From: Perna viridis
Taxonomy: Eukaryota
Length of the DNA: 64,000 nt
Direction of reading: 5' to 3'
Assembly: GCA_037379345.1 (NCBI GenBank)
Contig: CM074513.1
Location: 19,406,001 to 19,470,000 of the forward strand
The translations under genes and the position numbers were made by a program. The notes under the pieces were generated by a model. The model was not told where the DNA came from, did not search any database, and was given only the letters and a program-made list of their open reading frames with translations. Of this stretch, positions 30,501 to 64,000 are shown one piece after another (position 1 is the first letter of the stretch; every line of letters begins with the position of its first letter).

Positions 30501-32663
30501 ATACTTACCTTAGTTCCAATGGCAATAATGAGATGCTTTGGTACATTGCCAAAACAAAATTGACATTTCTCAAGTTTTCCTGCCATTTTCTTATGGTCTG
30601 AAAGAGGTTGAAGTTTGATTTAATATGAATTAATACCTGTATAATGAGTGTACAAGCTAAAAAAGAGAGAGGGAACGGGACTTACTCTTCTAGCAAAAAA
30701 CAATTGAATTAGCCCAAATAGTCTTCACTATGCTTAATGTATTTTACAATGGTATTGGAAACTTCCTATTTATGAATTAACTTCTTTTGGATGTAAAAAC
30801 CTTAATTCAGATAAATTCTTTTGTAAGGCACAAACCAATTATTATAGCAGAGTGCACATTAACAGTAATCTATAAAAAAATTACTCTGGCCTTAAAAGCA
30901 CCAATAGCTCGATTTCAGTCTTACAGGAGGTAAACCTGTAGTACCGAGCTAGGACCTTTACTTCACATCTTTAACAATAGCAAAATGTTTATAAATCATA
31001 TCTTAAAGTTTTGTTAAATTATGGAGAAAAATAAATTCTAGTGAATGTTAAACTGTAAATGGCATAATTATTTTTATAAAATCAATACATCATCTTCATC
31101 CTTTTATGCCTTGCATCTGCCTCAAATTATTTCTAAATACGTATCTACTTATCTTACTTAACTTTCTTAAAAGGTTTCATTACAATACATTCAGCAGTTT
31201 AGAAGGACTTGTTCATACAAAATGTGAACATGATAAAAATCATAATTTTAATTATCTTCCATTACAGTCATCTAAAAATCATAGCCTATCCATCCTATAA
31301 AGTTTAATTAAAATCCAGTCAGCAATTTGATAGATAAAGTCATATATAGCCAGGCAGGGTGACTCTCATATACTCAGGGACAGATGCAGAAATTGAAGAA
31401 CAGGAGGGTACACTGATTGACAAAGAAGGGCCTCACACCATCACATTAATTGACAAAAGAGGGCCTCACACCATCACATTGATTGACAACAGAGGGCCTT
31501 ACACCAACACACAGGGGTATAAAAAAGTTACAATATTACCAGCTATGGCTTGAGATCTTTCTTTCATCTCTGATACAGATATTGACTGTTTCTTTGCGGC
31601 TCTGTCCAGGAAAACATCATCAATCTGATAGTCATCACTAGTTTTGTCTACAGACTAAGACAATAATAACAAAGGGTTATCTCCCATGCCAAACACAAAA
31701 GTACATATCACCTAATTTCCCTGTTTTTTTTTTTAATTCTATGACAACCAGAAAAATGTAAGCTAAATAAGTTTTATGATGTCTATCAGTGATTTCATTA
31801 TTCCCATAATTACATGAAAACAATGTAGAGTTTTTTGTAAGAAGTGCTAAAAGACAGACAGACAACTGAACAGTATAATAATATAAAATTGTCTATTAAA
31901 GACCTATTCATAACAATCAGCTACTCAGAATTGATTAGGTGAATATAGATATTTTTGTATTTATAATTTTACGAAGTGAAAAAGGACAACTGTATATACT
32001 TCTAAGAAAATGTCAACACTTGGCAAGAAAAAAAACAAAGGATTGTATAAATAAAAAACATACCCTTCCAGCAAGTCTGGCAAACATAAGACTGTCATCC
32101 TCTGCAGTTCCCATCTTTTCTCTTTCAACCTGTTAATTTTAGATTAGATTTTTTGGTTAAACTCTTAAAAACTGTTGCAAAGCCATTTAATTTCAGCAAT
32201 ATTGATTCTGCAACAAACAGATTTGTGACTGCTGAATCTTAGAAACAACTAAACTGAAAAGCATAGAATGCAAATGAGACAAAAATGCATGCTTAAGTAA
32301 TATAATGTTACATGTACAATGGAGGGCTATCAGCATTAAAGTTGAGTAACTGGTGCAGCCCAAGTTTTATCCATCTATAGAACATGTTTTGCCTCACTTG
32401 TCTTTCATCCAAAGTACATTATAATTTCTTTTTTTAAACAATATTTGTGAATAAATTCACAAAAGAATACCATCCACTTCCACCTGGACCCTAAACCATG
32501 AAATAGGATTACCTTCCCCTGTAAGAACCTAAAATTGCTAACTAAATACATAATTCAAAACCTTATGTTAAGTTTCAACAATATCCAAAGAGCATATTAG
32601 GGGAATTATGATTACTACCATTAAAAGGTACATGGGTGAGCAGACAGAATGAGCATGGTGTTT

Positions 32664-32730
<67 letters not shown>

Positions 32731-35700
32731 TAGATATACAAACGTCTCAGAATGTGACGACTCCATTCGCTACACTGCTCCATCAGATATATATATATAT
32801 ATATATAAATAGAAAGGTCTGAAAAATTCCCAACAATGTTAGAACTGTCAAATTTGCGATGCAAATTTTTGGTCGTTCCCTCCGCGGGACTCGAACTCGT
32901 GCTGCTGTGACATCTATGGCAACACCGCCTGCACTAAGTCCAGCACCCTAGACCACTCTGCCAGCTAGGCCATATACTCATAAAGCTATATGTATATATA
33001 TATATATAAAGAAACACCATGCTCAATATATATATCATGGCGTTTCTTTATATATATATATATACATATAGCTTTATGAGTTTTATGCTGAGGAAGGAAG
33101 ATTAGTTATTCAATTCAAATTTTACCATCTTCTGGTGATGTTACTTATAAAACTTACATTATAGGCTAGAAGCTGAGAAGGCTTTGGAACAGCCTTTACA
33201 TTTGTAGGTGTCCATTTGTCAATTGAATGCATGATCTCATCAAACATAATTTTGGTGTAATGAATTTGTAAATCATAAAAACTGAAATCTTTAACTGACT
33301 TACCAGAGTTTTAAGATCAAAGTTTTCATCATCATCAAAATATTGTTTTCTTTCACCTTGTTTTCCATGAGTGTCAACCTAAAATTAAAGAGCATGTATA
33401 TATCATACTAGTAGTTACATGTATAAATAAGAATAATGTATGAAAATATATATAAAATCCTCTGCTGTTCTAAACATTTTTAATAATTTTTCTAAAGATG
33501 TGTTTTTAAATAAGGTATAATTGTCAAATGAACTCAACCAAAACAAAATCTCGTACATTTCAACACACACCTAATTTTTAAAGTATTTTTCCCTAAACAC
33601 ATGTATTGTTTTTCTTGCCCTATTTAACTTTCTATAAAATAAACTTTGTTTTTCTTACCTTCTGTTTCTTTCTCCTCCTTTTATTTGCCAAGTCTTTCCC
33701 ATCAGTAGACATGTCAGGTAGTGGTCTGACACGACCATGTTTATCAGTCTTTGTCAATAATACAACATCCACCCCTAGTTCTTCATTCTTCTCTGCTGCT
33801 GGAGGTGCTTTGTTTCTTTCCTTCAGCTCTCTGGCTTCATCCAACTCTGCCTTTAATTTAGCAGCTTTTTCCTGTCAAGATAAGTTTTTTGTCTTTTTTT
33901 TTTTTTTTTTTTACTGACATCCAACAAAGATTTATTCAACGAAAAAATATATTTGTATAACTATCTTGGATGAATACCTTTGGCTTGCAATAAATATAAA
34001 TTTACATATATATCAACTTTGGTGGAATTGTCAAATTTCCGTATACTCAAGGTCACCCATTCCTGTTAGTAAAAAATGGGAGAATAAAGTATTGCAGTCA
34101 ATGTACTGTATCTCTAAAGTAGTTGAGCCTAAAATTAAGAATATTGTTTATGACCTTACTCCATACCATACCTCAACAAATACAAAAGTTTCTTTTCGTT
34201 TCCAAATCAAAGGACATTATTTTGATTGGTTTGATGAATTTAAATATTTTACTCAGCAATCAAAGGGGAATAACTCTAACTATCAAACCTTATAATGCCT
34301 AGCAATTGATTGATTTTAAGAATGATTTGAAATAGAGCCTACAACACTGTCCCTGTTAGGTCTATAGCAAGCATGGCTATAATTTAAATTATAAATTCAT
34401 CATTTCCCTGTTTTTTAGCAATGCCTTAAATGTTCCTGATAAAAAAACAATGGAATTTTTTTTGTTTAAAATCAATGATGAGTTAGTGGTTTAAAGTGAA
34501 AATATTTTATTGTGACAACATACTGTATCACCCAAAATTTCTGCTTTGACAATTTTAGCTCCTAGCTGGTTCATTTCTTGTTCTGTGAGGATTTTAATAG
34601 GGAGTGCTGTTTCCACTTCAGGTTCATCAGACTCTGAACTTTCACTTTCACTTTCACTGCCACTAGTACCTATAAACAAACAGAAAGACAGCATGGTTTA
34701 CTCATAATAAACATACATTTGCTTGTATGGTTGTTATATGCATATTTGTCAAATTTCAGGAAGTTTTGTGAGATGTTTCTTTTGTATTCAAACATGATTT
34801 CTTTCTTTTTAAAATGGAAATCTGCTTTTTTCAACTCTGTATTTTACAATTTCATTTTTACCATATACATATACTTGATATTTTGCCAATTTACCACTAT
34901 CCCTGGCTTTGTAAAACCATGTCTTTTCATTTTAACTGACCTACTGCATACTTTGATTTTGTACTTTTCACTATCACCATTTTCACAACATTACATACCA
35001 CTAACTAGCTTAACATCAAAGATTATGGGGACAAATTTTCACGTTATTACATGTAATAGAAAAAAATATGAAACCTTGCGAAATGGCTGGTACCTTTAAT
35101 CTGTTGAAAGATTCTGCACATAATATCTCATCATGCTTCTTGCACAGAAAGACTAGGTAGCATTGGGTTACTAAATTAGTTTGAGACTTACTAGAAGGAG
35201 TAACTTCCTTTCTTTTCCTTTCAGAAACCCTTTCTTCAGTCTTTTTCTCCACATTTACATACTCCATCTTTTTCCATGCTGGCACATCTAGTTTCTTAGA
35301 GGAGAATTTCGTCTCCTTCCTATCAAGTGAATCATCATCATCAAAATCACCAGGTTTAGCAAATCTGCCTTTAGGTTTATCTCTAGGATTCATTGATTCT
35401 TCATCACTGCCAGGCCTTTTAAACCTACTCGATAAGAAACTTTTGCTGTATCTTGGTGACCTTGACCTACTCTTTCTGTTGTATTTTGGTGATCTAGACC
35501 TTTCTCTTCTTCTGGAACTATTTCTTTCAAATGGAGACCTACTTCTGTAATCATTCTTTCTTTCTGGGGACCTAGAGTGTGATCTGGAAGGTCTTTTGAA
35601 TTTTCTATCATTTGGAGCCCCTGACTTTTTCATCCTTTCTTTTGACCTTGACCTTTTGTACCTTTCCCATTCCCCTGACCTTTTTCTGTATCTTTCCCTT

Positions 35701-38700
35701 GACCTACTTCTGTCTCTCCTTGATGAAGAGTATCTATTTTCAGGAGAATCATTCTCTTCATCATTTGGCCTTCTAAATCTGTTTCTTCTTTCATTTTCTT
35801 GATCTTCTTTCATTTTAACACTTGCTTTTTCTGCATCAGACAACATTTTCTCCAACTTTTTCAAAGACTATGAAAAGAAAACATTACTTTCAGAAGAGCT
35901 GTATCAACAACAAGTGCACTTTGTTAATGTCCACTTTTGTCAAGGTAAAAGTAGCTCCTTTAATTTTGATTCACTTAATTTCTTTTGAAATGTCTGTAAA
36001 TAATGTCATTTTTATTACCATCTAGAGACTACTGAACTGAAGTCTGAAAACTGTGAACTCTCCCCTTTTTTTATGAAATTCTACTTATTTTTTTAAAACA
36101 AAGCAATTGAAATATATGAAATAATCATGAAAATTAAACCTAGTAAAAAACTGAAAATACAGTTATAAAAAAAGATTCTCAACTACATTTATGTGTACTT
36201 CAAAAGACTTAATAATATAACAAATTACCCCATATTTTTCTGTTGCTACATCCTCAAGACTTCTCTTCTCCTCTTTGGCCTGTTCTACACACCTCTGGTA
36301 AGCCCTCTTCATCCAGCTAAGGCCCCCATCTCCAACCCCTCCCATAATTGATGATTTGGATTTGTTCTCTGGTAAACCAGTGCCTCCATCCTTCCAGTAA
36401 GGATTTAGCTCCCTTTCATGCTGCCCTGGCTAATATGATATTCTAATGTATATCAGACACATATTTATCCTGTAAACGCAGAGATTTTTGTTTTGTCTTT
36501 TTTTTTCACTGTTTATGTGATCAATCTACTTTCACAAGATGTAAATTTATGATTGTTCCTTAACTAGTAATATAATGTTCTACAAAAAAAATATTTACAA
36601 CAGCTTAATGTTCAAGTTACAGGTCTGACAGTGAAAATAACAAAAATAAAATTGTTAAGTAAATTTCATGGTTCATAGTAGACCATAACAAGAAAAGACA
36701 TGTGTCTGTTTCATTCCTACATTACCTTAACTATATTTTAATCCTCAAATAAGTTCTTTTGTATGTTTTTATCAAAAGTCATTGCATTCTTATTACAAAT
36801 AAAAATCATCACTTCTACATTTGTATGTTTGTTAAGAAGCAATCTTTATAAGAATCATGCAAATTTTGTAAAATGTGATACACCTTAAAAAAGGCTACAT
36901 ATTTTTATTTTTGTTATTAAGTTGCTTTATAGATCTTTATGATGAAATGTATAATTATTCATTCCAATCAGTCATCTCTTAGGAGATAATCCACATGTAA
37001 AATCCAACAGTTTCTATTGTATTTCAGTGCCATTTACAGAGTTATCTCCCTTAATTTTGAATTCTACAGTGCATTCTATATAACTTCTCTCTCCTACAAC
37101 AAGGGTTATATGAAAAGCCACAGGTTACTTTCTGTTTATCATGACATTTTAAACAAAATATCAAAAATAAAAATATGCAGGATTTCCAACCATGAATAAG
37201 ATTTCACATGACTCTTATGTGGAATGCTACTTACGTGATAATAATGCACAGAATATATATTCTAAACCAATTAGGCAAAGTCAACTTAAATGTTAAACTC
37301 ACATCCAACAGGTGGAAGGATTTTATTTTTCATTTATTTTTATTTCTAACCAGATATTTGCTAGCCTAATTTTAGATTTTTGAAGCATAGATATGTTCTA
37401 AATCCAGTTTCAAAGAAGAAACATCAGTTAAGTCGCCAAGAAATGAAAGATTTGTGTCAAATAGTATCTCAATACTAATAACTGCTTGAAAAAACCCTGA
37501 TTTTGAAATTCCTGCCCAAATTTTTAGGGATAGGGGGGAAAAGAATCTACAAATTTATTTTATTTGGTCTTACATAGAAAATATCCTTCAAATACTTTTC
37601 AGCTTACTTTTGATGGAACAAAATTCAAACTCCAGAAAGAAAATAATTCCAAAAATAATTATTTACCTTATTCAGTAAATTTGATTTGTCCTCTGCCTTT
37701 TGTTTTTCTTCTTCTAGCTTTTTCTGTTCCATAATTTCTTTCTTTGATATTGTTGGAATAATGTCTAAAGGGCTCTCCATCCAACTATCTCTCTAAAACA
37801 GGAAAATACAACCAGGTGAAGTTTTTCAAATTATTTCACAGAAGATAAAATTATTTAAGAGATATTGAATACTGCAAATCAGTCCAGTTTATCACTTTAT
37901 CTGCCAAAAAAAACAAGCCTAAGGCGAGTTTATTAAATACCAATTCAACTATTGAGAGTAAAATAAAGATGAGCAATAAGAATATAAATTTAACAATCAA
38001 ATGCAATAGGGTATGAAAGTCTCCACTTCAATCATGAGAATGGGTTCTAATCTACTATTCGAATGCCTGGAGATTTTCCATTTACAGAGTGTTGTGTTCA
38101 GTATTAACAGCAAAACATCTTTTCATGTAAATAAACTGATGAAAAATGACAAAACAATATTGCTGCTTGATAAAATTATCAAGAAAAGCAAAAATGGATT
38201 GTAATGCAGTGTTTCAAGATCCTGGAAGTAAATGATATCAAACTGCTGGTAGCACTGGAGGTTTTCAATTCATGTGAAAATAGCACTATACACTCAATCT
38301 CAAAGACAACATGATGTAAAATAAAACTGTAATCATTAATTTGCATTTCCCATATAATTTAGAACTGTTTCTTTTTATTAAATGTTTAAACTGAATGTTA
38401 ATCTTTAGTGCTGATTTCAGAGATAAACCTGTAAATCTTTGGAACAGTTCACACATTAGATTTTCCACCACTGACACTGTCTAATGTGGGAGATGTTTAA
38501 AAGGAATTATGTATGGACTTAATTCTATGTAGTATTCAGAAACAGTATGGAAGTTCCAGACATGAACCTGTGACATACTATATATAATAAAAGGTATTTT
38601 GATACTGAAGAAGTAAAAACCAAAAAATGCAAATCAGTCTTTCGATTCCAATACATTCTATATTAGAAATTGCAGTAAGGCAAAATTAACTTAGAATGAG

Positions 38701-45619: not shown

Positions 45620-46056
45620 GGCACTGGTCACTCCTAAGGCTTCTGGAACAGGGTTATGTTGCTACAAGATTGAAGTCATCACTACAGAAGTTTTATGGTC
45701 GTCATAATGAACTTGTGGATCGTTATTTTGTATCCATCTGCACCATGAAAACTGATTTATTCAACGGGTCATAGTTTTCCTTTCCTCGTTTGTCTACCCT
45801 GGACTTGACTTTTTATGAGCAACTCGGCGGGTGTTTCTAGAAAAGCAGAGGACGCTTACCCTACCGGTGCATCTGGTCCATACTCCCAGTTTTTAGTAGA
45901 GTCCGAGTTGCTCATTTGCTTTTGTTACTTTGTATGTATGATTTTAGTTACTTTATGTTCTTTGTTGTATATGTCTGTTTTCCATGTCTGGTCTTTGTCC
46001 CTGGATTACATTCTTTTGATTACCGCTGTAACCTTGGTTCCCTTGATTACTCTTTC
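45620..46056 (+). mobile_element. Penelope-like retroelement 3' fragment (RT C-terminus plus structured 3' UTR)
   Basis: LLEQGYVATRLKSSLQKFYGRHNELVDRY...TDLFNGS*, then the shared tail ending GATTACTCTTTC. Confidence 0.85.
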
Positions 46057-48115
46057 ATATAATGTTTCAAAAATGTCTTTACTCAGACCTATAAGATTTA
46101 ATTTACATTTGACAATATGCATAGTGGGGGGATAAAAATACTTCAGGATTTTAGTTATATAAGTTATGGTGACAATAATGGGGAAGAGTGTGCTCTCAAA
46201 ACACTAAAATATAATAAAAATGTCTCAATTTGCCTGTAAAAATGAATAATTATAATTATTATTTACCAGTAATTGTCTCAGGGAAAAGCAGTGAAAGTGG
46301 TAAACTAACTGTTGATTAAGTATTTCATACTCATTATTGAATAATAAAAAAAAATATATCATTTGAAAGAAGTTTCTTTAATCTTTTAATTGGTAGTAAA
46401 TTCATATGGTTAAACAAACAGAAGACCCAATGATTAAAAGTTTACTGGGGTATAGTTTAGGAAAATGAAAATTTTGATATTTTTTTTCTCGAGACATATA
46501 CACATTATTATGCAAACCACGCTTTTTAAAATAGCCATTACCATTCAGTAGTTTTTTTTTCCTTCATTGATACTAATTTCATTTTTAATGAATACAACAG
46601 TTTTCACAAACATTCAATGACAAATCATACTTTATGACCCTTTAAAAAGGTAATTTGTTTTCTTATTTGTCTAAAAAGATCTAATTCTGAAATGGAAAAT
46701 ATTTACATTCCTCTTATTTTAAATAAATAAATAATATATGTTGCCATTTTAGCATTTTGGGACATCACTCATCAAAATACATCCAGTGGTTTTTTACAAA
46801 CACCCTTAGCAAAGTTTCCCTATTTTAAACAGAGAAATTTGAAAAAATTTGCTAAAAAAGAGCCAAGTTCTATATAGGTTATTGAAGTACAATTGACTTC
46901 TTCCTCTATCATACACTCCCTGTGTTAATTAACCAAAACGGGAATAATACAACACGAGAACTTGTTAATCCCACTATCAATATGCAGTAGCACAAAATGT
47001 AATATAAAGTCCCTGATGGGATGCATAATATGTGAAAGTGAGAGATAGTTACTCTAAATCTTTGGGCATTTCTGGACCCACAGTGACTGTACTTTTATGT
47101 TTATCAGAAGTTAGAAAAAAAACTCTTTTCCTTGACATTTGTTTTATTTCTTTTTTTTCCAAATCAAATGTCACTAAAATGATCTCTTTTGACACAACTA
47201 TTGAGATACCCCTGCTGTAGACGTAAACTGAACATTCATGATACATTTAGCAATATAAATGTTTATGTCAATGGTAGTTCTTGATCAATTATGTAATTAC
47301 ATCTGAAAAATTTTGCCATATTGTTTTATTATTATTATTATTATTTCATAACACTAGTTGATATGTTTAACTTTAAGTCATACGGTGAAGAAATAAATAG
47401 CGAAACACACGAAAAAGTTTTGCAATGACGTTTACCTTATATATGGGCAGTTAACAAAATTCATTTCGTGCTGAAAACATTGGCATTTTGTCTTCAGTGT
47501 AAGCAGGGACCAGTTGTGACAGCTTCATTCGGTTTAAATTGTTTGTTTGTTTGTTTTTGTATGTTTTGTTGTTATTTGTCATGCACTGATTAATAACTTT
47601 GTTTATTCTGCACTTCACTATACGAGAACCAGTTTATACGAATTAAAATTTACGAATGGTATTGTCGGGCGCTTTTAATGTAATTTTTGTAATGTTCGTT
47701 TTAAAATGTGCCATATCGCTTATTCTCCCCTTATAAGGTAGACATTATGTAATTGATTCGATCTGTCATTATACTTCAATCTTCCAAGTGATTTCGTTTT
47801 ATATAGTACTGGGTGCATTTCGATCCCGGGATTTTTGGCATGTGGTACGTTTAAAAGTTGGACAGTGTCTGATATTATCCCTAACCTTTAAATATAGTTA
47901 TATGCAAAAATGATGTTTTGATATAGAAGCAAACACTTAAAAGGAAAAATGTCAATCATAGTAATTATATAAAGCCATGGTGAAAGTCAAGTGTTACGTG
48001 TAGAAACGTAGCCAATTAAGATTAGTATCTGTACCGTGTCATTGAGATTTTGCTGTGGCAAAAAGATAAAACAAAATACCAAGTACATTGTGACTGTTAA
48101 ATGTACTATATTTAA

Positions 48116-48491: not shown

Positions 48492-48590
48492 TTAATACAT
48501 TGCGCTATGATGTCGAAATATTCACTGTCTTCATCTTTTATTATCTAAAACCTTACTGGAACATCATATTAAGACCAAACGTAATATTTT

Positions 48591-49235
48591 GAAAGATGTA
48601 ATCAAGGGAACAAGGATTCTAGCGGAAATCGAAAGAATGTAATCCAGGGACAAAGACCAGACATGGAAAACAGACAAACACAACAAGGAACATAGAATAA
48701 CCAAAATAATACATACAAAAAGTAACAAAAGTAAATGTACAACTCGAACTCCACTAAAATCTGGGAGCATGGACCAGGAGCACTGGTAGGGTAAGCGTCT
48801 CTGCTTATCTAGAAACACACACCGATTTTCTCATAAAAAGTCAAATACAGGGTAGACGAAAGAGGAAAGGAAAACTATGACATGTTCAACAAATGAGTTC
48901 TCATGGGGCATATGGATATATTCTAACGATCCACGAGTTCATGACGACGACCATAAAACTTCTGTAGTGATGACTTCGCTCCAATCTCGTAGTAACATTG
49001 CCCTGGTCCAAAAGCCTAATTGTAAGAAGTCTAGCACGATACAAAAAGTCTGCGTAGTTACGGCAAGCTCTGGCATAACGTATGAGTTGTGATATGAAAA
49101 CTCCATACGCAGGTGCTGAAGGGATATTGCAACAGATGAAAGGAAAGTTGATAATACGGAATTAAAAGTCATCGCGTTTGTCGTATAGTTTAGTAAATAA
49201 TTTTCTTTTACTATCAATCTCGAAGTGTAGGTCAA
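48591..49235 (-). mobile_element. Penelope-like retroelement 3' fragment (longest copy)
   Basis: TKLYDKRDDFNFRIINFPF..NIPSAPAYGVFISQLIRYARAC..FLYRARLL plus the shared tail. Confidence 0.88.
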
Positions 49236-49925: not shown

Positions 49926-50375
49926 TGTAACTGTATAGGACACCCTTATCTCAAGTTCTTTAGGGGTGCGATGCGATGTATAAAATCCACAAAACTACGA
50001 TTGTTTAACAATAATACGTCATCTTTATAGCAGAAACTGAGATTGAAGGATCTAGCTGAACGATTTTTCTTCTTTCGGATCAGATCAGCTATAGTCAGGT
50101 ATAGGTCAGCGAGAAGAGGGGCACCATTTTTTCCAATTGAAATCAGACCGTTTGTTGAAAAACGCGTCCACTACACTAGACAAATATGTTAAAAAAAATC
50201 CAGCATTTTGGAAACATCTTCTTCAGAATATTTGGGAGATGATTTGGAATCTTTTTTTTTTACAAAGTATGAGAATATCTACCAAGAACTATATATTTAT
50301 ATCTAGATGTACCATCTTTCTAGTTGGGATTTCAAATTAAAGTAGGGAATAGAAATATAAAGAGTTAAATTATAA

Positions 50376-50740
50376 AAATCATAGGTTTTGATGCCATTGT
50401 ACTCTGATAATACACTTGAATTGAGGGTTTCCAGAAGACCTTTAGAATTTTTCAGGATCCATATTGAATTAATACCACTACGGGAGTAACAAGTACCGTG
50501 GTAGGACTGGATACCCTCTTTGATAGCTATGAGTATAGAAGTTAAAAGTTTTGAAAGAGGGTTGGTGGTGCACTTGCCTTTCTAGCTATGTAGGGTTGTT
50601 TGTACCATTCTTGTGGAGTTTAGAAATTCAAGTACATAGACGGAAGGTCACAATCATCGTCTTTGATAGAGAGACCAAAAGAGGATAGCACAGATGTATG
50701 GTTTTACAATATCTCTTCTCTGAAAGTGTGGCAGGAAATA
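50376..50740 (-). mobile_element. Penelope-like RT core fragment
   Basis: KLHKN...KCTTNPLSKLLTSIL...YSRSGINSIWILKNSK...IKTYDF; inverted homologue of 53095-53470. Confidence 0.85.
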
Positions 50741-51169
50741 ACATGATTGTCTTTGGAGGGGGTGTAGAAATTTTAAAACGGAACACATTGTGTATGGTAA
50801 TTAATATAACACTAGCGACCAATGATTTATGTGTAGGTCTAAAATCTAAGCATTTGTACAATGTAACTAATATTATGCATGACATAAAATCTTCATTCTT
50901 ATATCAACAATTGATCATCGTATCACAACGAACATTAAATCCAAATAATACAAGATTGCACCTAAATATTTGATTATTTGTGTCAAACCTAAATTGAATT
51001 GGTATAGAAATATGCAACTCCTATATTTAATTCCATTAAAAGTTTATATCCCACACATTTCTTAAATGATTAGGGCCATAACCATCAAAACCAACCAAAG
51101 CCTTATTTTATTATCAAAGACTTTAAAATTGTCGTAGATCAGTTGGGTTTACAGGAAACCAAATATCTT

Positions 51170-51460
51170 TGAAATAATAATCAAGGGAACCAAGCTTATA
51201 GCGGTAATCAAAAGAATGTAATCCAGGGACAAAAACCAGACATGCAAAACAGACATACACAAAAAAGAACATGAATTAACTAAAATCATACATACAAAGT
51301 AACAAAAGCAAATGAGCAACTCGGACTCCACTAAAAACTGGGAGCATGGACCAGGTGCACCGGTAGGGTAAGCGTCCTCTGCTTTTCTAGAAACACAAAC
51401 CTAGTTGCTCATAAAAATTCAAGTCCGGGGTAGACAAACGAGGAAAGGAAAAATATAAGC
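51170..51460 (-). mobile_element. Penelope-like retroelement 3' UTR fragment
   Basis: Reverse complement of 45770-46056. Confidence 0.88.
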
Positions 51461-52553
51461 CGTAAACAAATCTTTTATTTCACAACAGTTGTAACGTACG
51501 TAAAATAAGTAATAATTACGCTTCTCTACAAATTAGGACCATGTTGAAATAAAATTGTTCGCGCATCTCACCTAGATATGCCTGCAGGAGTCGAACCTTG
51601 AACAGATGGGACAAATATTGACACAAAGTTCAAGCTTGGTACAACACTGAAATTTATTTATGACTAAATGTATGACACAAGTTAATATGAGCAACGTCCT
51701 ATATATAGATATACAAGTATGTAGAATGTAAGTTCAAAACTATGAATGGCTATATTCTGACGAAAGTGACGAAAATTGTCGACAAGGAAGTAGACGATTG
51801 CGAAAGTGCGGAGGCACCGTTTTGTCTTTTAAAATAATACCTCGATGAATACGATTTTATATTTATTTATTTACTTTATAATTTGAAAATTATTGGCTGC
51901 GTAGAAAGGTATAAGCGTTCCCAAAAGAAAGTCTCACACATTCTCCTCACCGAATGAGATTCCGTCCATATATACATGTAGCAACATGGCAGTGCACCGT
52001 AAACCATGAATAAACTCCGTCCATCATTTGCACAGCGTAAAATCATATTATTTTGATTAGAATGAAAAGAGTTAAATAATATGAGACTCCCTTTTTATGA
52101 ATTAAGTCCCATAACGTTTAATCAGAAATCACAAATTTTCAAAAATTGAATGGGAACTTCCATAAATATAGATAAACTATTCAGCAAAATGTCATTACAA
52201 TTGCTGCATGGGTTTATGAGTTATGGTCCAAAAACAGAAAATCACCCCATATTTGTACGAATAAAGTTCCATAACTGAAAAACAATGGAAATTCATTAAA
52301 AAACATCTTGCCCCATTGTCATACAAATTAGCCCGAGATGTGCATCTTTTATTTCTAACAGACAATCAAAATATACAATATATAGGAAGTAAATCGTTTT
52401 AAATGATCTATTAAGTAACAAAGTAAAAACAGTATAACACATTTTGAAAGGTACTTTGAGTAGCATGAATACTCAGTGCAAGAATGCTGAATTGTGTTGC
52501 TCTAGTAAAGCACATAATTAATATATGAAACATGAACAATAAAATAAATTTAA

Positions 52554-52765: not shown

Positions 52766-53094
52766 TTAAAGACAATTATCATTTTAATAATGATAAAAAA
52801 AGACAGAAAAATAATGAGAAAAAAAGGCTTGATAATTACAAGACGCAAGGGAAGTCTTTAGCGATGACATTGAGTATAAAATTTAAAACTTGTCCTGACA
52901 ATCAAGACGCTTCCTGAAGCATTTCATTTATTTGAGGTAATGGGGAGCGACCATGTAAAATCAGAATTAGCCACCCAAGACGGCATAATTATTTGAACGA
53001 GAGTAACTCTATAAGGAAAGGGCTGGATAAGATAGTAAAATAATTAACTACTATTCGAAAAAAAAATATTATGAATATTGTTGGTAATTCTGTT

Positions 53095-53560
53095 GCTGTT
53101 ACAACATTTCCCAGAGAAGAGATAGTGGAAAACTACGAATCTGTGCTATCCTCTTTTGGTCTCTCTATCAAAGACGATGGTTGTGATTTACCGTCTATGT
53201 ACTGGGTTCCTAAACTCCACAAGAATCCATACAAACAACGTTACATAGATGGATCTGCAAAATGTACCACCAAACTTCTTTCAAAAAAACTTTTAACTTC
53301 TATACTCACAGCGTCAAATAGGGTATCGAGTCGTACCACAACACTTGTTACTCCTGTAGTGTTATTAATTCAATGTGGATCCTGAAAAATTCGAAAGATG
53401 TTTGGAAACCCTCAATTCAAGATTATTATCAGGAAATAATAGCATTAAAACCTATGTTTTTCAACATTTTTCACTTCTATTCTCCACATTATACATCTTT
53501 GTCCCTGGATTACATTCTTTGTTGATTTCCGCTAGCATCTTGTTTCCCTCGATTACTCTT
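53095..53560 (+). mobile_element. Penelope-like RT core fragment fused directly to the family 3' tail
   Basis: LPSMYWVPKLHKNPYKQRYI.GSAKCTTK (PLE RT), frameshifted; ends ...cctcgattactcttt. Confidence 0.88.
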
Positions 53561-53840: not shown

Positions 53841-55249
53841 TCATAGAAGTTCCTCTTCTTCTTGTCCTCCAATGCTTTCTTTTTGCGATGATATTTCGAT
53901 TTCCGTATTGTTAGTGTTTGTTTTAGGCACATAATAATTCGGTCCGACCAACGATAAAACTACAGGGAGCAATAGCGTAGCATGCATGGCTCCAATTACC
54001 ATGACGATGACAATTACCTTGAAAAAGGAGAAGAAAACAAACGATTTTGAAAATGCCAGCATCATGACCCCAATGATTGTTGAAATAGCACCATTTAAAA
54101 TTAGCCCTCCTGACCTATCAATTGCTGTCGCTGCCCTCGCATTGTTTATAGTCCCTTCCGCTTGAAAAAAAGCGTGACATATACGAGCACTAAAATCTAT
54201 TGAGAAACCAACACACATAATAATATGTATCATTGTTACTGAGCTTAAAGTCAAGCCCCAAAAATGCATGAATCCAATAACCCCAACCATTATCATTGCG
54301 GCTGACAAAGTAACAAGAAGGATAAGAACCGGAAGTGGCATGAAAAATACAGTTACCAAACATACCACAAGTATGCATGTAAGCAATGTCTGAATGGTCT
54401 GAGGAATAATTTGGACATATTGTTCAAAGAATATGAAAGCTGGAGAGTAAACAAAAACAGGGAGATCCGATACTTTTAAACCAACCCGTAAACGTTTCAT
54501 CAGACCTGCTAGTGATCTTGAAGTTAACAGACTTGTACTTTTTACAAAGAACCTCGAGGCAACGACAGAAAACTTTTTGATTGTGACGTCATTGATAAAG
54601 AGGTTACCTTGTTTGGTTGAAAGAAATTGTTTTAAGCCGTCGATGAAATTGACATCAGAAGTATTGTCATACAATGGAGTTTGCATGTAGGCGTGTAACC
54701 AAGATATCTGAAAATCATTTTCTATATCAATTTCTTTTTTAGCATTTTCTAGAAAAGAGTTGATCGATGTTAATGTCGAATTTGATCGATAACTTATTGG
54801 TGAATAGATATTTAATGAAAGCAACAAATTTTGACTAAACATATTATGGTTTAAATTGTAAAATTTATAATAGTAAGAATCCTTAGAAACGAGATCCCGA
54901 AGGTCCAAATCATCCCGGAAATTGGTCACACTCCAAACTGACAGACCTAAATACCCAAAAAATAACAACAATACTGGTATTTTTGCAGGTGTAAAGAGCA
55001 ACAGGCGCTTGACCACCCGTTTCGGAAATTTTTCAATTGGTGCTTCCAACTCATCTGTTGTTTTTTGTGGTTCATCACAACAACACAAAACATCAACATT
55101 TGACTTGTTTTCATTATCGTTACCCGCATTCGATTTCAACTTTATACATGTTGCCCAATGCAGATTTCTCGGAACTCGTTTTTCGATGATGGTCATCACT
55201 CCGACGAAGAAGGTCACGTAATTAAAGTAGCAAAACAGGATTGCACAAC
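53841..55249 (-). CDS. PTCHD3: PTCHD3-like exon 4 (terminal)
   Basis: ttgcag|GT ... TGA, 1409 nt, contains the 458-aa ORF in the track. Confidence 0.95.
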
Positions 55250-58200
55250 CTGCAATACAGTTTAAGTCAATATATTAATAGAATGGTTATTCATTATTGG
55301 CAATAAATGAAACTTGTTATCTATAAATTGATTGCTGTAGTTAAAGTACCACTGTTACGTCCCTCTTCACCTGGAGAGAAAGATGACTACTGGAATTACA
55401 TTAGTTTCTAAAACTGTTTGTAAAAGTCGAATGCGACGACTTCCAGGATTGGTTATGTTTCGGACTAATAATAGTAAATAAATGATAACGGTCAGAGAGA
55501 AAAATGCACTCTACAGAGCGGTGTAGATTTCAAGTGCTGCAAGGTTTTTTGTTGGTGATACAAATCTTTAAAGACAGGTGCATATCCGAAAAGTTTAAAA
55601 GAAGAGGAGGGGATTCTAGAGGGGATTATAGAACAAGAGGCACTAAAGAGCATAAATCGCACACATAGCTTGATAAGCTACATTCTGTAATAGAAACGTT
55701 TGTTTAAACGCACGACAAACGCACGATAGAAAGGTTCCTTTAAACACACGATAGGAGCGTTCCTTTACCCCGTCAGAATTTGGCTTAACCTAATTGTTTT
55801 GAAGATAAATGCGTAAAACTGTCGTCTGACCACAAAGATTTATTTTTAGTAACGATGGCCATGTTTGTCGACAGACATATAATGGTAACAACAAAATTAC
55901 CGAACACTAATCCGATCCATAATCAAGTCAAGAACAAAACAGACCTGGCAAAATAAATCGATATTAACAGGAACAGCTGGTACCGCAATGGTCCTGACTT
56001 GGTAAGGGCATTTCAAAGGAAATGGTTGGTTAAATCTAGGTTTTCAACGCGCTTAATCTCTCCCATTGCAGGCTGAATGTACCGGTGAATGTACCGGTGG
56101 TGATTAAATAGCATTTGCATGTAATTGCATCATAATGGGTAAATCAGCGATAACATCAGCACAAAGAACAATTTACAAAAACATTACTCATTATTGTAGA
56201 AGAAATTTAGTATATTTTAACAAAGGACTGATATCTTTGAAAAATTTGGTAAGATACCTTTTTGAAACGCATTTCCTCATACCCCTGATCTAGGAATTTG
56301 TTACGCAGATATTTATGGCGAACAAGAAAATCAGAATAGTTAGTACTTGCTCTAGCGTAGCGAAAAACTACTGTGTGATCCCCATTTTTTTAATAACGAC
56401 GGTCATGTTTTTTGACGGATCAAAAGTCTCCTCGTCAGTTCTGTGCAGGATACCCCAAGGCATATTCATACCAAGTAGGTTTCCAAATGGTCATATAGTG
56501 TCAAAGGAGAAGAGGTTTGCAAAAATTGTTGACGACGACGGACGCCAAGTGATGGCACAGAAGATGCAAAACTGTATTCTCCTTTATCTTGAGTTCTGGT
56601 GGATACCAAAGATTTTGGAGATAAATTAAAAAAAAAAACAAAAATGTTGTTGAACCTTTATGTCCTAATTTTAGTAACGGCGATCTTGTATGTTGACAGA
56701 TCAAAATATATCCCCACACGAATTCTATGATGAATACCCTTAGAAACATTCATGCCAAATTTTGTTCTAATTGGTCTAGTGGTGTAAGAGGAAAGAGTTT
56801 TGAAAGTAATAGCAATAAAATAACAAAACTAGAGTCTCTTAATAGCCTGGCTTGATATGTTAGATTTTAAGCCATAATTAAAGCAATACCCAAATCACGA
56901 CATAATAGAAATAGACATGACATAAAAAACGGAGACAGCAAAAAACAAACCACCAACAAACGACGGAAGCAAACCATATTTAATTAAACGAAAATGAGAA
57001 ACCCACACTCCATCACAAAAAAAAAAAAACATGGGCCAGAAAATCAGTCATAATAAACAATACATAGATCGTAATTAATGTTACAAATTACCTGTATACC
57101 AGCAGAAATTGCTAACGCTTGGAAACACAGACGCAGCACCCACACACAACACAACTATTTCTGTAAGTGACGTAATTGTAATGGCTACCCCACTTATTTT
57201 CATGGCAGAAGAGATTCGGGTAGGAACGTCGTCTCCATTATTTGTATCAGCTATGGCAGACAGTAAAACAAACATATCGTCAACACCAATTCCTGTGAAA
57301 ACAGAGAACTTGAAGTATACCGTAAAATGTTTTTTGTGATCATGTGTTTGATAACTCCGTTAATCAAGTTGACCTTTTCGTGTTAAGTGCGGGATAGTTG
57401 ATGAGCATGCTCAATAAACACTTCCACGAGTAAAATCGTTTGGTTGTACCCCAAAACCTACCTCACGGAAGTATATTTGACGCATGCAAATCGCCTGTCC
57501 CTCAATTATCAAAAAAGGATCTATAGCAACATTTTTTCTCTTATTCACCTAAAGTTGTTTGACTATCCATGTGAAACAAATGGTAACGGTACAACACAAA
57601 CAAAACCATAGCACTAGAGATACGAACTCCCACAGAAAAAAATACGTTTTCATAAACAAAAATAAACGAATTTTTTTTTTTTTACGTTAGAAGACAAATG
57701 AAAACTAAATATGTGAAAAAAAGTTATCTTATCAATTACAACTAAAGGTATGATTAATGTACCTAATATCAGGAAAGGCATTGCTCCAACACTATCCACG
57801 AACTTCACACCACATAGACTGCATAAACCGAAAGAACCGAGAATAGCCAACCCCGTCGACAGTACTCCAGCTAGCCCAAGATAGTAACTGTTGTCCACAC
57901 AGTTAATTCTCATCAATGTCAAACAAGAAAAGATAATAACAAGTGTAAAGGAAACGGGAAAAAATGAGATATCCCCTGAAACATGCTTGCTTAGCTCCTC
58001 GCTAAGACTTTCGGATGTCGAGTACTCTATACTAATATTTTTGTTAGTGAAAGATGTTATGTCAGTCAAATATGTCTTTTCCCACATTGAGGCAAGCTCT
58101 GGTTGTTCCTTCTGTAGATTATACCTAAACTTAAGGGCTTTTGCCGATGAGACCCTACCAGAGATTTTAATAGCACCACCAATAATCTGATCTAGGTAAA

Positions 58201-59263
58201 ACCGCTGGCCAGTTGACAGTTGGTAAATCGGAAATGATACAGTTCCCTGTTTTAAATCGACGAGGAATTCTTGGTTAAACAAAATGTTCCCTCCAGTTTC
58301 ACATTGCCCATGGGTACGAGCACATATGTCTTTATATGCAAAAGTTATGCCATTTTTACGGAGAGTAGATATCCTTTCTATATAAGTGATTAAATTTTGA
58401 ATGTCTTCCCAGTAGGTATAGTTAAAAATATTTCCTCCACTCTTCAGTTGAACAATGACTTCAGCGTACAGTCCAAAATCATGAAGACTTTGTTGATAGA
58501 AGTTTTCACTTGTGTTGACATTAAATAAAGACTTTACCTGGAAAGAATTTACAATCTACTGCGATTGCTATCAAAAAAATACTAGTATTGAAAAGGCTGA
58601 CATATCATATAACATTTAGTTTCACTTTCAATTGCCTTTGTTGTCCGCACCTGATCTTAAAAACGGCTCGAAAGAGTAATCAAGGGAAGCAAGATTTTAG
58701 TGGAAATCAAAAGAATGTAATCCAGGGACAATGTTCAGACAAGGAAAACAGACACACACACCAAAGAACATAAAATAACCAAAATAATACATACAAAGTA
58801 ACAAAGTATCGCTTTACAAAACATATATATCAAGTTTATCATTCTGGATATTTTGTCCAAACATTTCAGGCAAAACTGTTCAAAGATTTTCATTAGTTTA
58901 ATATTACTGCCTATTTTTATATTCCCCTTGCTTGCCTTTTAAGTTACATTTAACATGATAAGCAAAAATATTATTTTTTTCGTTAATTGTCGAGTTGCAA
59001 TAGAGTCACAAAAAGATATCTATGATAGATACCGTATTTTGGTCTTTACTTGCTTCACTCCCAGTTGGTGCATACTGCTCTATTCCAGATTCTCTTTCCA
59101 TTGAAAGGACGCCTAAACCCAGGCCAATTTCTATGACTGACACAATACTAATTACTTTTAATGGATGATTCGCCATGAACTTTCCATAGCGTCCAAATAC
59201 ACCTTCAATGATCTCGTCTACTTTTCTGTGTATCTTGTAAATGCACTTCATCTGTCTTGTCAT
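53841..59263 (-). CDS. PTCHD3: Patched domain-containing protein 3-like (patched-related, SSD/RND family), 4 coding exons, 871 aa
   Basis: Join 59033-59263, 57763-58537, 57092-57292, 53841-55249 is in frame. N-terminal TM (YGKFMANHP...), sterol-sensing domain with MPFLILGIGVDDMF and ITITSLT, second luminal loop (DLVSKDSY), YSPAFIFFEQY, GFSIDF and C-terminal TM block. The symbol means family-like, not proven orthology. Confidence 0.92.
55632..56830. mobile_element. Helentron-type element (same family as 16836-17817) with internal insertions, in PTCHD3-like intron 3
   Basis: aacaagaggc start; repeated ttttagtaacg..ggccatgttt and cattcataccaagt blocks; gacgacgacggacgccaagtgatggca. Confidence 0.6.
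57092..57292 (-). CDS. PTCHD3: PTCHD3-like exon 3 (GIGVDDMF...)
   Basis: cacag|GA ... ACA G|gtaatt, 201 nt. Confidence 0.94.
57763..58537 (-). CDS. PTCHD3: PTCHD3-like exon 2
   Basis: ttccag|GTA ... TTA G|gtacat, 775 nt open frame. Confidence 0.92.
58671..58806 (-). mobile_element. Short PLE 3' tail fragment in PTCHD3-like intron 1
   Basis: aaagagtaatcaagggaa...aagaatgtaatccagggaca. Confidence 0.8.
59033..59263 (-). CDS. PTCHD3: PTCHD3-like exon 1
   Basis: ATG preceded by in-frame TAA, donor ACG|gtatct, 231 nt. Confidence 0.87.
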
Positions 59264-59785: not shown

Positions 59786-59819
59786 CTTTGCAGACCATAC
59801 TTGAAGTATGGTTATAATA

Positions 59820-59979
59820 TATGATATAATGAACATACCATGTCAAAATCTTATCACATGCTGTATCAACCCTCGACCTATATCATCCGTGGGCCGGTGG
59901 CATTTGGGATTATAAATGAGTCTCGGGTTGATACAGCATGCGATACAGATTTTGACATGTAATATTCAGTATATCACAT
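59820..59979. mobile_element. Small foldback MITE (about 58-bp arms)
   Basis: catgtcaaaatc.tatcacatgctgtatcaaccc / gggttgatacagcatgcgatacagattttgacatg. Confidence 0.85.
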
Positions 59980-60945: not shown

Positions 60946-62294
60946 AAGTTCTCCGGGTTTTGTGCAAGTCTTCTCATTCAGCACAACGACGTTGCACTGA
61001 ACAGGTAATTTTTTTTTCTTTTTTGGTCATATATACATATATATGTTTTGATACATATTTATATTATGAGTGTTTGATGCATCCTGTAATAAATTTCAGT
61101 CGTCGTTGTCGTGCGACCATCCACTTTACTTACGTATTATTAAATATTGCCCTAACCCATTTTAGTATTCATGGTACTGTTAGTTTTTGGTTCATGGTGA
61201 TTGTGTCTACTTTGATGAAGTTCTGGTACCTGGAGAATGATACTACATTAATTCCCTTGATTCAAATACACTTTGATAATTGTAGCTTGCTTTTTTCCGA
61301 ATGAGAATAATTTGATATGACCATTTTTACTATTAGAAAAGATGTTGTCTTTATTTTATTTTGGATACAACATTTTCTGGAGCTTAATGTAGGGAGGGTT
61401 ACGTTATCGTATCTAATCCATGGTGTACAAAAACTCACCGAACCAACGATGTTTTTGAGGTCAACACATGCTATATATTTAGGTAACGATAGTCCTTTCT
61501 TTATTCAGGTCAGCATTTTTTTTAGAAACCATACATTTATCTGCCTCTAAAATCAACCAAATAAACCAAACCAAGAACGATAACTCTGGTAAAATGCCAA
61601 TACGCAATCTATAAGTTTTTATTGCAACAACTCAAACTGGTTTTGTGGCCTATAACCATTACTGAATTAGATATATAATTGTATTTGGTTCATGAATCAC
61701 TCCCGGTCAGATTTTTATTAATGCTATCTAATAAGTTGAAGAAAGTATTTCAAAACTGATGCTAATAAAAGTTTTAAAGTGCCAAAAATACTAATACTTA
61801 TAATGTGCTTGAATTTTTCTTCATAGTTAAGATAGCCCATAAAATAATTCCAAAATACATAATTGATAAGGACCTTGTGAAACTTGTGTTAAAACATCTA
61901 ACCACGTCAATAATGCTTTAGATTGTGTATCTGTCTAGTAGGCCTATTTAGATGTAAGTAGTTAACAATTTAGAGAAGATATATCATGTTATTTATGGCT
62001 TCTGTTGTTTAATAGGTAATTGACTGATGGTTAGCTCTCGAAAGTGTTCTATTTTTAGCAACGGTTAAAAATCGCGCTGATAAAAATTAATACATATACA
62101 AAACGTATTATAAACGTATTCAAATTGTTAGCAAATTTCTATGGAGAAAATGTCCCCATAGAGACTAGACTAGTGGTATCAAATTAGGGTATCTTTTAAA
62201 GAAATGTATTTCCGAGGGGACCCCTTCTTATTTTTTTTTATTCCGGAAATACTAAAAAGATATTTACGATTATGTTTCCTCACTGCTACTATTG

Positions 62295-62724
62295 ATATAT
62301 ATATATATAAGGGTCTGAAAAATTCCCAACGATGTTAGAACTGTCAAATTTGCGAAGCAAATTTTTGGGCGTTCCCTCCGCGGGACTCGAACTCGTACCG
62401 ATGTGACATCTATGGCAACACCGCCTGCACTAAGTCCAGCGCCCTAGACCACTCGGCCAGCTAGGCTATATAAAATATAGCTTTCGCTGGCCGGGTCATT
62501 CCTCCTCGTAGGATTAATCTAGGGCTGTAACTTAGTACACGATGTATGGTAGTACGGGACAGTTCATCTAGGTGTTATTATGTAGGATAGAGGATCAAAT
62601 TAATGATGCATGTCACAACAAATCAATATTATACAACGTCTCAGAATGTGACGACTCTATTCGCTACACTGCTCCATCGGATCAAATTGATACAGGGAAG
62701 ATAACGTAAACTTATATATATATA
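62295..62724 (-). mobile_element. (TA)n-flanked element of about 400 bp carrying a tRNA-Leu-derived Pol III unit
   Basis: Minus strand GCCTAGCTGGCCGAGTGGTCTAGGGCGCTGGACTTAG (A box, Leu-TAG-like) ... GAGTTCGAGTCC (B box) ... TTTTT terminator at 62318-62322; (TA)n at both ends. Confidence 0.85.
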
Positions 62725-64000
62725 AACATCTGTCTTATCCCTCCTATGATTAAGGATGGAACTGCAACATGTTTACGTTTATTTTGATTCTTATATTGTT
62801 TCATAATATTTATTTTCACTTGTTGGGTTCAACAGAATTTCTAGTTGGCTATTTGCTGCATATTTCCAATAAGTTAATACTGTCATTCCCTCTGTAATAT
62901 TCAATTTACTCATAAGAGGTAGCAGTTACCTTTTTTATATTTAGTCAGGATGAACTTATATTCGTATCTGTTCACCTTGTGTTACGGATATCATATAGGT
63001 CAAGATGACCAATGCCATACATCCTCATCAGGTACTCTAGCCTTTCATATCGATAGAGTCATATATATATTATTTTGTCTGAGAGTAAATAGTGAATAGT
63101 CCGGTAATAATTATATGGTAATTGACGGTAGAGTATCAAATTTGGAATTTAGACTTTAAAACTGTAAAGTTGTTTATTAGTCACCGCGAAAGCATCGAAA
63201 TACATTTAATGGTTTATAGGAAAATACAATGTAAAATCCATTAACCCGCGGAAATGTGCATCATTATATTATTTCACAGAAGTGAATGACAAATTACCAA
63301 TTTCTATATGATTCTCAAACTTGCTCAAACAAAAAAAAGAAACATTCATATAAAAATATAAAAGAGAGCACTTCATCTCAAAATAATGTAATACATTGTG
63401 TACGATAGGTGGATAAATGTCATCCTTATTAATATGCGTTTACATAGATACGCATAGAGCACTAAGCAATCGATTCTTCAATGAAATTAAGCTTTAAAAT
63501 CAATTAAAAATCTAACTTACAATTCTTTCAGCACGTTGAAGTTCATTTCAACACATATTATCCTAAGGTTTCAGCATTTGATATCGCAATACGTCACTAA
63601 GATAAAATATAATTTACAGAGTAAAGCATCATTACGCAATACACATTTACATGTTTGTATCTTTGTAATCAATCTTTAATATGATGTTGTCAACATAGAC
63701 TTTTCTTTCGTTATTGATTATTAATCCCCTAAAAGTAATTATAATATACAATATCAGAGCGAATTAAATAAATCATTTGTGTGCAAGATTTACCTGAACT
63801 TGTAAAAGTAGCTGATTTGAAAGACTCTCTAGTTCTTTTAACGACAAAAATAACAACCAATCAAATTACGCGGATAGAAATAGATCGAAATCCTATGAAG
63901 CGTAAACGACTTCGAATAAGATACGAAAGTTATTAATGAAATGCATCTGCTAATAGTATATGTGTAAATATTGCGGACTGTTCCTTTCAAATATTAGGGG

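Follow-up and report, generated by a model that had tools for sequence, protein, structure and literature searches.

Layout of the unit, its second copy and its relatives

The window, which is the whole 64,000-nt stretch of Perna viridis DNA that was analysed, is AT-rich animal sequence with many repeats. The region at 62295–62724 consists of a single unit of about 405 bp of a high-copy, non-coding repeat (copy 1), bounded by (TA)n runs at 62295–62309 and 62713–62724. The unit is read on the minus strand. Block A (62310–62372) contains two small hairpins (62364–62346 and 62340–62324) and a run of five T residues, T5 (62322–62318), and is identical at 48 of 63 nt to the related unit in a metagenome locus, L002. 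The tRNA-like head (62373–62466; 67 of 94 nt identical to L002) contains an A box (62459–62449), a TAG loop (62434–62428) and a B box (62394–62383), and both boxes are kept in L002. Position 1 of the head, 62466, is the predicted Pol III start. Directly before it lies a hairpin loop (62467–62479) with a run of four T residues, T4 (62475–62472), which is the predicted terminator for the RNA of the preceding unit. Block B (62480–62630; 109 of 151 nt identical to L002) is the predicted 3′ part of the RNA, and its portion at 62480–62540 is predicted to pair with 62427–62466 in the head. Block C (62631–62682) carries a small hairpin (62653–62637), and its TA-rich start is the second common breakpoint of the family. 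Where units follow one another head-to-tail, block C′ (62683–62711; identity to L002 at 19 of 29 nt) is connected to block A of the neighbouring unit. The left (TA)n run is the predicted RNA-3′, or priming, end of copy 1, with single-copy DNA to its left, and the right run forms the other end of the copy.

To the right, copy 1 adjoins a separate, unrelated low-copy repeat (62725–63065) that also lies between (TA)n runs and has a summed depth of about 1,000 in sequencing run X1, compared with 38 for single-copy DNA. On its minus strand, a relaxed match revealed a hammerhead-like core near 63031–62982, and most contigs placed there have the canonical letter at 62984. Judged from these letters, this repeat is possibly a retrozyme or an end of a Penelope-like element (PLE). 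It showed no similarity to the unit or to the 3′ UTR of the PLE in L002, and a tail common to it and the unit was not found.

The minus-strand features listed in the earlier note, namely the A and B boxes, the hairpins, T5 and the (TA)n ends, all lie where that note placed them. Its description of the head as tRNA-Leu(TAG) holds in so far as the head is tRNA-like and carries both boxes, but no tRNA gene was detected there by ARAGORN at default settings, and a tRNA match to the head was absent from the Rfam search. With lowered thresholds, ARAGORN reported tRNA-Leu(TAG) at the head only with an artificial 52-nt intron. The anticodon is not retained in L002 or in the second metagenome locus, L001. 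The box motifs and the low-threshold result suggest that the head may be derived from a tRNA; the leucine label is that of the earlier note and agrees with tRNA-Leu features, but not with any database match.

A second copy, copy 2, lies on the minus strand at 32667–32976. Its layout is (TA)n-C-(TA)n-A-head, and it ends at the predicted start. Block C matches at 32735–32788 (94% over 54 nt, E = 2e-17) and block A with the head at 32799–32976 (93% over 178 nt, E = 6e-74). Neither block B nor C′, which makes up roughly the final 30 nt, is present. This two-block match bears out the permuted block order that had been proposed for copy 2, which may itself be two separate insertions. In the junction at 32976–33064, the target site first recurs in inverted form over 50 nt (32976–33025); after this, 13 nt together with (TA)n are duplicated directly, with 32654–32666 recurring at 33036–33048. 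The inverted piece is target DNA and not element DNA. The junction fits an RT that runs off the end of the RNA and then switches to the target DNA, and host repair could produce the same signature. The inverted and direct copies of the target site together form a 106-nt fold-back at 32976–33081. A long Arg/Ser-rich reading frame on the minus strand at 35016–35867, with no Pfam match, is probably an exon of a gene whose intron carries copy 2.

A profile search found no third copy in the 64-kb window. Two other dispersed families are present, one with at least six copies (22157–22373, 26970–27156, 45637–46066, 48577–49017, 51156–51472 and 58670–58808) and one with four (18767–19073, 27508–27782, 28890–29301 and 36832–37233). 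Exons of a Patched-domain gene occupy 53841–58555 on the minus strand (Pfam Patched, E = 3e-7 for 57653–58555), and an imperfect palindrome of about 160 nt with a 39-nt tandem inside lies at 59819–59979.

L001 and L002 are two metagenome loci that were retrieved with a pattern built on the two hairpins of block A; exact-pattern scans of viral contigs and of prokaryote genomes, and a first such scan of metagenomes, gave no match. Both are about 70% identical to the window unit and 83% alike mutually. L001 runs from (TA)n through block A, the head and block B and stops at the start of block C in (CT)n(TA)n. In L002, (TA)n is accompanied by a complete unit of 438 bp and by the beginning of a further one (98% over 59 nt). 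Each of the five blocks shows 66–76% identity between the window unit and L002. Since blocks B, C and C′ match L002 no less well than the head does, they are parts of the element and not flank. The reading of the locus as a Pol III gene with a captured upstream flank is therefore set aside, because this "flank" is conserved in the relatives and pairs with the head. The sequences that flank the four loci do not match one another. A repeat resembling L001 and L002 may be present in mussel genomes.

The association with (TA)n was confirmed, as (TA)n adjoins at least one end at all four loci and six of the nine TA runs of at least 12 nt in the 64-kb window belong to the loci of copies 1 and 2. Three of the four loci have (TA)n at both ends; at its other end, the L002 contig becomes bacterial-looking, with bacterial-looking ORFs at 1300–2374, and this contig is probably a chimeric assembly.

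Abundance, joints and breakpoints of the family

Contigs from four sequencing runs (X1, X3, X4 and X11) were placed on 61900–63100 at 85% likeness, and the numbers placed per run were, in ascending order, 877, 13,956, 20,650 and 25,434, with about 14,000–25,000 for each DNA run. X11 is only guessed to be RNA, so its contigs do not count towards expression, and the contigs carry no information on strand, start or level. The summed depth rises from 38–60 on the left flank (X1, X3), with 38–66 left of 62269 in X1, to 1–3 million exactly over 62310–62719. The summed depth over the unit is 53,000–63,000 times that of the single-copy flank, a ratio that is inflated by short overlapping contigs and does not give a copy number; divided by 31, it becomes about 1,700–2,000. 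The safe reading is a copy number of thousands or more. Most contigs placed on the unit are 90–99% alike, and there are very many variants.

In all four runs, the end of one unit is joined head-to-tail to the start of another. Among the 15 joints listed (507 further joints exist), 10 jump back by 391–409 nt from the unit end to the unit start, connecting 62703–62714 to 62304–62319. The contigs with such joints number 65 in X1, 56 in X4, 57 in X3 and 8 in X11 among those listed. Record 10 of X11 reads head-A-C′-C-B on one strand. The recurrence of joints in which C′ is followed by A indicates that this is the native order. The joints in the four runs, together with the head-to-tail arrangement in L002, support the head-to-tail source and the circular permutation that the earlier note had proposed. 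Its further statement that the units are joined by (TA)n is correct as regards the presence of a TA linker, but this linker is mostly short, with 0–8 letters between the joined units where given among the joints listed, and is not a long (TA)n. None of the listed contig pieces spans the whole placed stretch.

Loose ends rich in TA are concentrated at two places. Those before 62295 were found in 122–138 contigs in X1 and X3, and those before 62630/62635 in 93 (X1), 66 (X4), 62 + 110 (X3) and 13 (X11) contigs. Block B has only about one half to two thirds of the depth seen over the head, with a step down at 62473. This drop by a third to half at the 5′ end of the head indicates that many copies may end there in a SINE-like manner and may thus lack block B. 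An extra letter that turns T4 at 62475–62472 into T5 accounts for about one fifth of the depth in X1, X3 and X4.

Fold and predicted transcript of the unit

On the minus strand, whole units fold better than their shuffled versions, with z = −3.9 for the window unit and −3.3 for the other unit (40 shuffles each), and the plus strand of the same two units gives −3.9 and −3.4, likewise with 40 shuffles each. In the consensus of three sequences, block B pairs with the head through 37 pairs, in which 94.6% of the cells are paired and 10 of the 37 show two-sided (compensatory) change; this covariation is of low power, as it is based on three sequences, two of them 83% alike, with the structure predicted on the same alignment. 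The observed values were reached in none of 500 shuffles, and slid controls were 26–40% paired. The A and B boxes lie on the minus strand, and this strand folds better than the plus strand in three of three sequences when folded as RNA and in two of three as DNA, and the consensus fold energy is −73.5 kcal/mol for the minus strand versus −59.5 kcal/mol for the plus strand. Such strand-asymmetric G-U pairing in the predicted folds fits a molecule that acts as RNA.

Counted from the head, T-runs of at least four residues occur at +145 (T5) and +400 (T4) in the window unit and at +267 (T4) and +428 (T7) in L002. The only position common to both is the loop directly before the next start. With the shared T-run immediately ahead of the following head, Pol III would be predicted to make an RNA of one unit in length, namely 403 nt for the window unit and 434 nt for L002. 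When each unit is rotated to begin at the head, the first 40 nt are predicted to pair with the last 70 nt or so in both. Because the predicted RNA starts at the head, copy 1 would be a rotated copy, and copy 2 would be collinear with the 5′ part of the RNA.

Against the full-unit model, the T5 at +145 in the window and the T4 at +267 in L002 should stop part of the Pol III transcription before the full unit, and the presence of T5 at +145 means that the model requires read-through. The earlier note had predicted a small RNA of about 150 nt ending at this T5 (62322–62318). The prediction does not extend to the family, because it depends on a T-run that L001 and L002 both lack and that is thus lineage-specific. 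A 161-nt RNA consisting of the head and the hairpins folds no better than shuffles (z = −0.40). An RNA of about 150 nt may be made in the window lineage as modelled, and it would not be conserved.

Mode of propagation and relation to known elements

We lean towards the reading that the unit is a non-autonomous retroelement copied by a PLE RT from the predicted unit-length Pol III RNA. In a tandem, Pol III would initiate at the tRNA-like head and terminate at the T-run that precedes the following head, and the two ends of the resulting unit-length RNA would pair. A PLE endonuclease with a bias towards (TA)n would nick a microsatellite, and the free end would anneal to an internal UA-rich linker of the RNA. 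The RT could then copy to the 5′ end of the RNA, stop there and switch to the target DNA, as would be the case for copy 2; alternatively, it could continue onto the 3′ end, by a template jump or around a circle, as far as the next TA linker, as would be the case for copy 1. The outcome would be rotated copies bounded by (TA)n. Copy 1 would begin at the C′/A linker, cross the start site and end at the next such linker, which requires a jump between templates or else a template that is circular or made of several units.

The PLE- or retrozyme-like direction suggested by the earlier note is supported by the head-to-tail units, by (TA)n and by the PLE end beside the unit in L002. In L002, the unit and a GIY-YIG ORF (E = 3e-7) are arranged tail-to-tail, and one (TA)n is common to the unit and the 3′ end of that ORF. 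Among 21 longer relatives of this ORF, 19 matches contain an RT (PF00078 or PF28514) and all 21 contain a CxxxxCxxC motif, that is, a linker of the Neptune/Nematis type. The segment at 81–790 of L002 is the 3′ end of a Neptune/Nematis-type PLE with GIY-YIG and the CxxxxCxxC linker. In the parts of PMC8557442 that were accessible, this linker is tied to the Neptune/Nematis and Naiad PLEs and suggested as a mediator of microsatellite bias, and PLEs are described as showing partial tandems, inverted 5′ copies, microsatellite bias and head-to-tail non-autonomous forms. The present family shows such traits of non-autonomous PLEs: head-to-tail tandems, an inverted junction (of target DNA, at copy 2) and microsatellite targets.

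The link between the unit and a PLE consists of one adjacency on a chimeric-looking contig. No similarity was found between the unit and the 3′ UTR of the L002 PLE, the one PLE compared (p = 0.17–0.94); according to the accessible text of PMC8557442, non-autonomous Chlamys elements generally share 3′ ends with their partners. An exact-word search for six family words in the Naiad, Chlamys and Hydra consensus files of that paper found none of the six, and its File S1, as far as accessible, lists bivalve Naiads without a (TA)n preference. Relatives of the L002 PLE were not found in the 64-kb window, and the PLE protein search yielded no viral locus. The 3′ UTR of the L002 PLE contains a possible variant hammerhead near 715–760, for which strict and relaxed scans gave no match; PLE hammerhead variants are described in the accessible part of PMC4209133.

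Two fragments in the window (50303–50722 and 53044–53469) are 83% identical in opposite orientation and have no Pfam match. Their translations look like pieces of PLE RT, and no match was obtained with L002-type PLE proteins.

The unit could also be a tRNA SINE mobilised by a LINE, comprising the head and block A or the whole unit, for which (TA)n is the insertion signature; recombination and renewed insertion into one microsatellite would subsequently have produced the tandems and the rotation. This is rather unlikely in our judgement. The A and B boxes are retained, copy 2 stops at the 5′ end of the head and has a direct duplication, and the step in depth at 62473 would be expected of such an element; tandems of bivalve SINEs exist, according to the available portion of PMC11481361. 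However, a start at the 5′ end of the head, as in a classical SINE, is seen in copy 2, whereas copy 1, L001 and L002 extend through block B. Blocks B, C and C′ keep a collinear order and equal the head in conservation, and block B pairs with the head. The tandem joints, among those listed, contain 0–8 extra letters and no target DNA, the copies break at the same internal linkers, and the six family words are missing from eight supplement files of PMC11481361.

It is quite unlikely that the unit is a SINE-derived satellite spread as DNA, either as the central repeat of a non-autonomous Helitron or Helentron or as excised circles that re-enter (TA)n by microhomology. Circles would yield the rotation; in oyster Helitrons, a microsatellite precedes short tandem arrays, the monomers of which measure about 437 bp in some cases (PMC8268682); and SINE-derived satellites are known (PMC10702118, in its accessible part). 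However, no common box flanks the copies, and Helitron/Helentron terminal boxes were not found around the repeat, where the DNA left of 62269 is single-copy and the flanks of the four loci are unrelated. The supplement of PMC8268682 with the C. gigas satellite consensus sequences contains none of four conserved words, CgiSat02, 03 and 10 look unrelated in their printed parts, and the strand asymmetry of the G-U pairing fits RNA.

In host Pol III RNAs, the 5′ end pairs with the 3′ end and a U-run closes the molecule, as in the predicted unit RNA, and the structure is conserved across about 30% divergence, but a host structured Pol III RNA gene in tandem arrays with a cellular function, the dispersed copies of which would be passive retro-copies, is very improbable, because no Rfam family corresponds to it, the 30% divergence and the very many variants fit a mobile family, and mobility alone can preserve structure.

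Several known systems are close to the unit. The nearest in logic are the SINE-like Sm-alpha and Sj-alpha repeats of Schistosoma; as given in the accessible text of PMC6765202, their tandem unit contains a Pol III promoter from which the upstream copy transcribes the next. Copies of Sm-alpha, like those of the present unit, hold sequence upstream of the promoter. The monomers of Sm-alpha are cut by a hammerhead ribozyme, whereas the monomer ends of the present family are predicted to be set by the start site and the adjacent T-run.

The nearest in size and fold are the metazoan non-LTR retrozymes, described in the accessible parts of PMC7229834 and bioRxiv 10.64898/2026.07.22.740005 as tandem or dispersed non-coding units of 170–400 nt with self-paired RNA and a proposed dependence on PLEs, those of mussels being about 350–390 bp. 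The unit likewise forms tandems with a predicted self-paired RNA, and its cut lengths of 408 and 438 nt are slightly above this range. It differs from these type I hammerhead elements in having tRNA-type A and B boxes, a comparison that for the mussel retrozymes is by description only. A strict type I hammerhead core is absent on both strands of all four copies, with none reported by Rfam. A hammerhead reading of block B was rejected, since L001 and L002 contain only a partial look-alike in which the core is absent.

Non-autonomous PLEs such as MRC1 of Chlamydomonas, in the accessible text of PMC8557442, also have head-to-tail insertions and a microsatellite bias and need no hammerhead. They differ in that 3′ sequence common with an autonomous partner was not found here with the one PLE compared, and the unit has a tRNA-like head, a feature not mentioned in that text. 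The TRIMp3 elements Helenus, Ajax and Cassandra have LTRs, a PBS and a PPT, with Helenus occurring in oysters and mussels (PMC10886601, accessible part). They resemble the unit as short non-autonomous retroelements with an internal Pol III promoter derived from a small RNA; in contrast to them, the unit ends in (TA)n, has no LTR pair and, in the window, contains no purine run of at least 10, and none of the six family words occurs in the supplement of that paper. The SINE-derived satellites of squamates, as described in the accessible part of PMC10702118, are also tandem units built from part of a SINE, whereas the non-head part of the unit covaries with the head and its copies are dispersed into (TA)n.

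In Rfam, no match in the window region surpassed E = 1, and L001 and L002 gave none at E = 2. A full-text search of the literature found no description of the family and no paper with any of the six family sequence words. Likewise, 12 of the 33 supplement files of PMC10294476 contain no family words. All these searches by exact words miss diverged or line-broken matches. The accessible parts of PMC4758252, PMC10294476, PMC11481361, PMC6201952, PMC11136912 and PMC12602865 describe no such element. So abundant a repeat is probably already catalogued under some label.

By analogy with these systems, the unit would work like a PLE-dependent Sm-alpha or retrozyme, and it would be a member of neither according to their defining hammerhead. 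A more specific and distinctly speculative possibility is that it represents a "Pol III retrozyme" without a ribozyme, from an old family of invertebrates in which a terminator lies directly before the unit's own start. Its unit-length RNA, with paired ends, would either be circularised or have its two ends bridged by the RT of a Neptune-type PLE, primed at internal UA linkers by nicked (TA)n, making it a SINE-like parasite of PLEs without fixed ends.

When repeats are annotated, a family that lacks fixed ends can easily be broken up into several or taken for an ordinary SINE or satellite. If the PLE-dependent reading is true, Pol III-driven non-autonomous elements would extend from those with LINE and LTR helpers, that is, SINEs and TRIMp3, to a hammerhead-free parasite of PLEs, and a promoter–terminator pair could substitute for a ribozyme in making monomer RNA. 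The thousands of copies that break at a few TA linkers would then be a natural record of the priming of PLE RT on microsatellites and of its template jumps, which are poorly understood.
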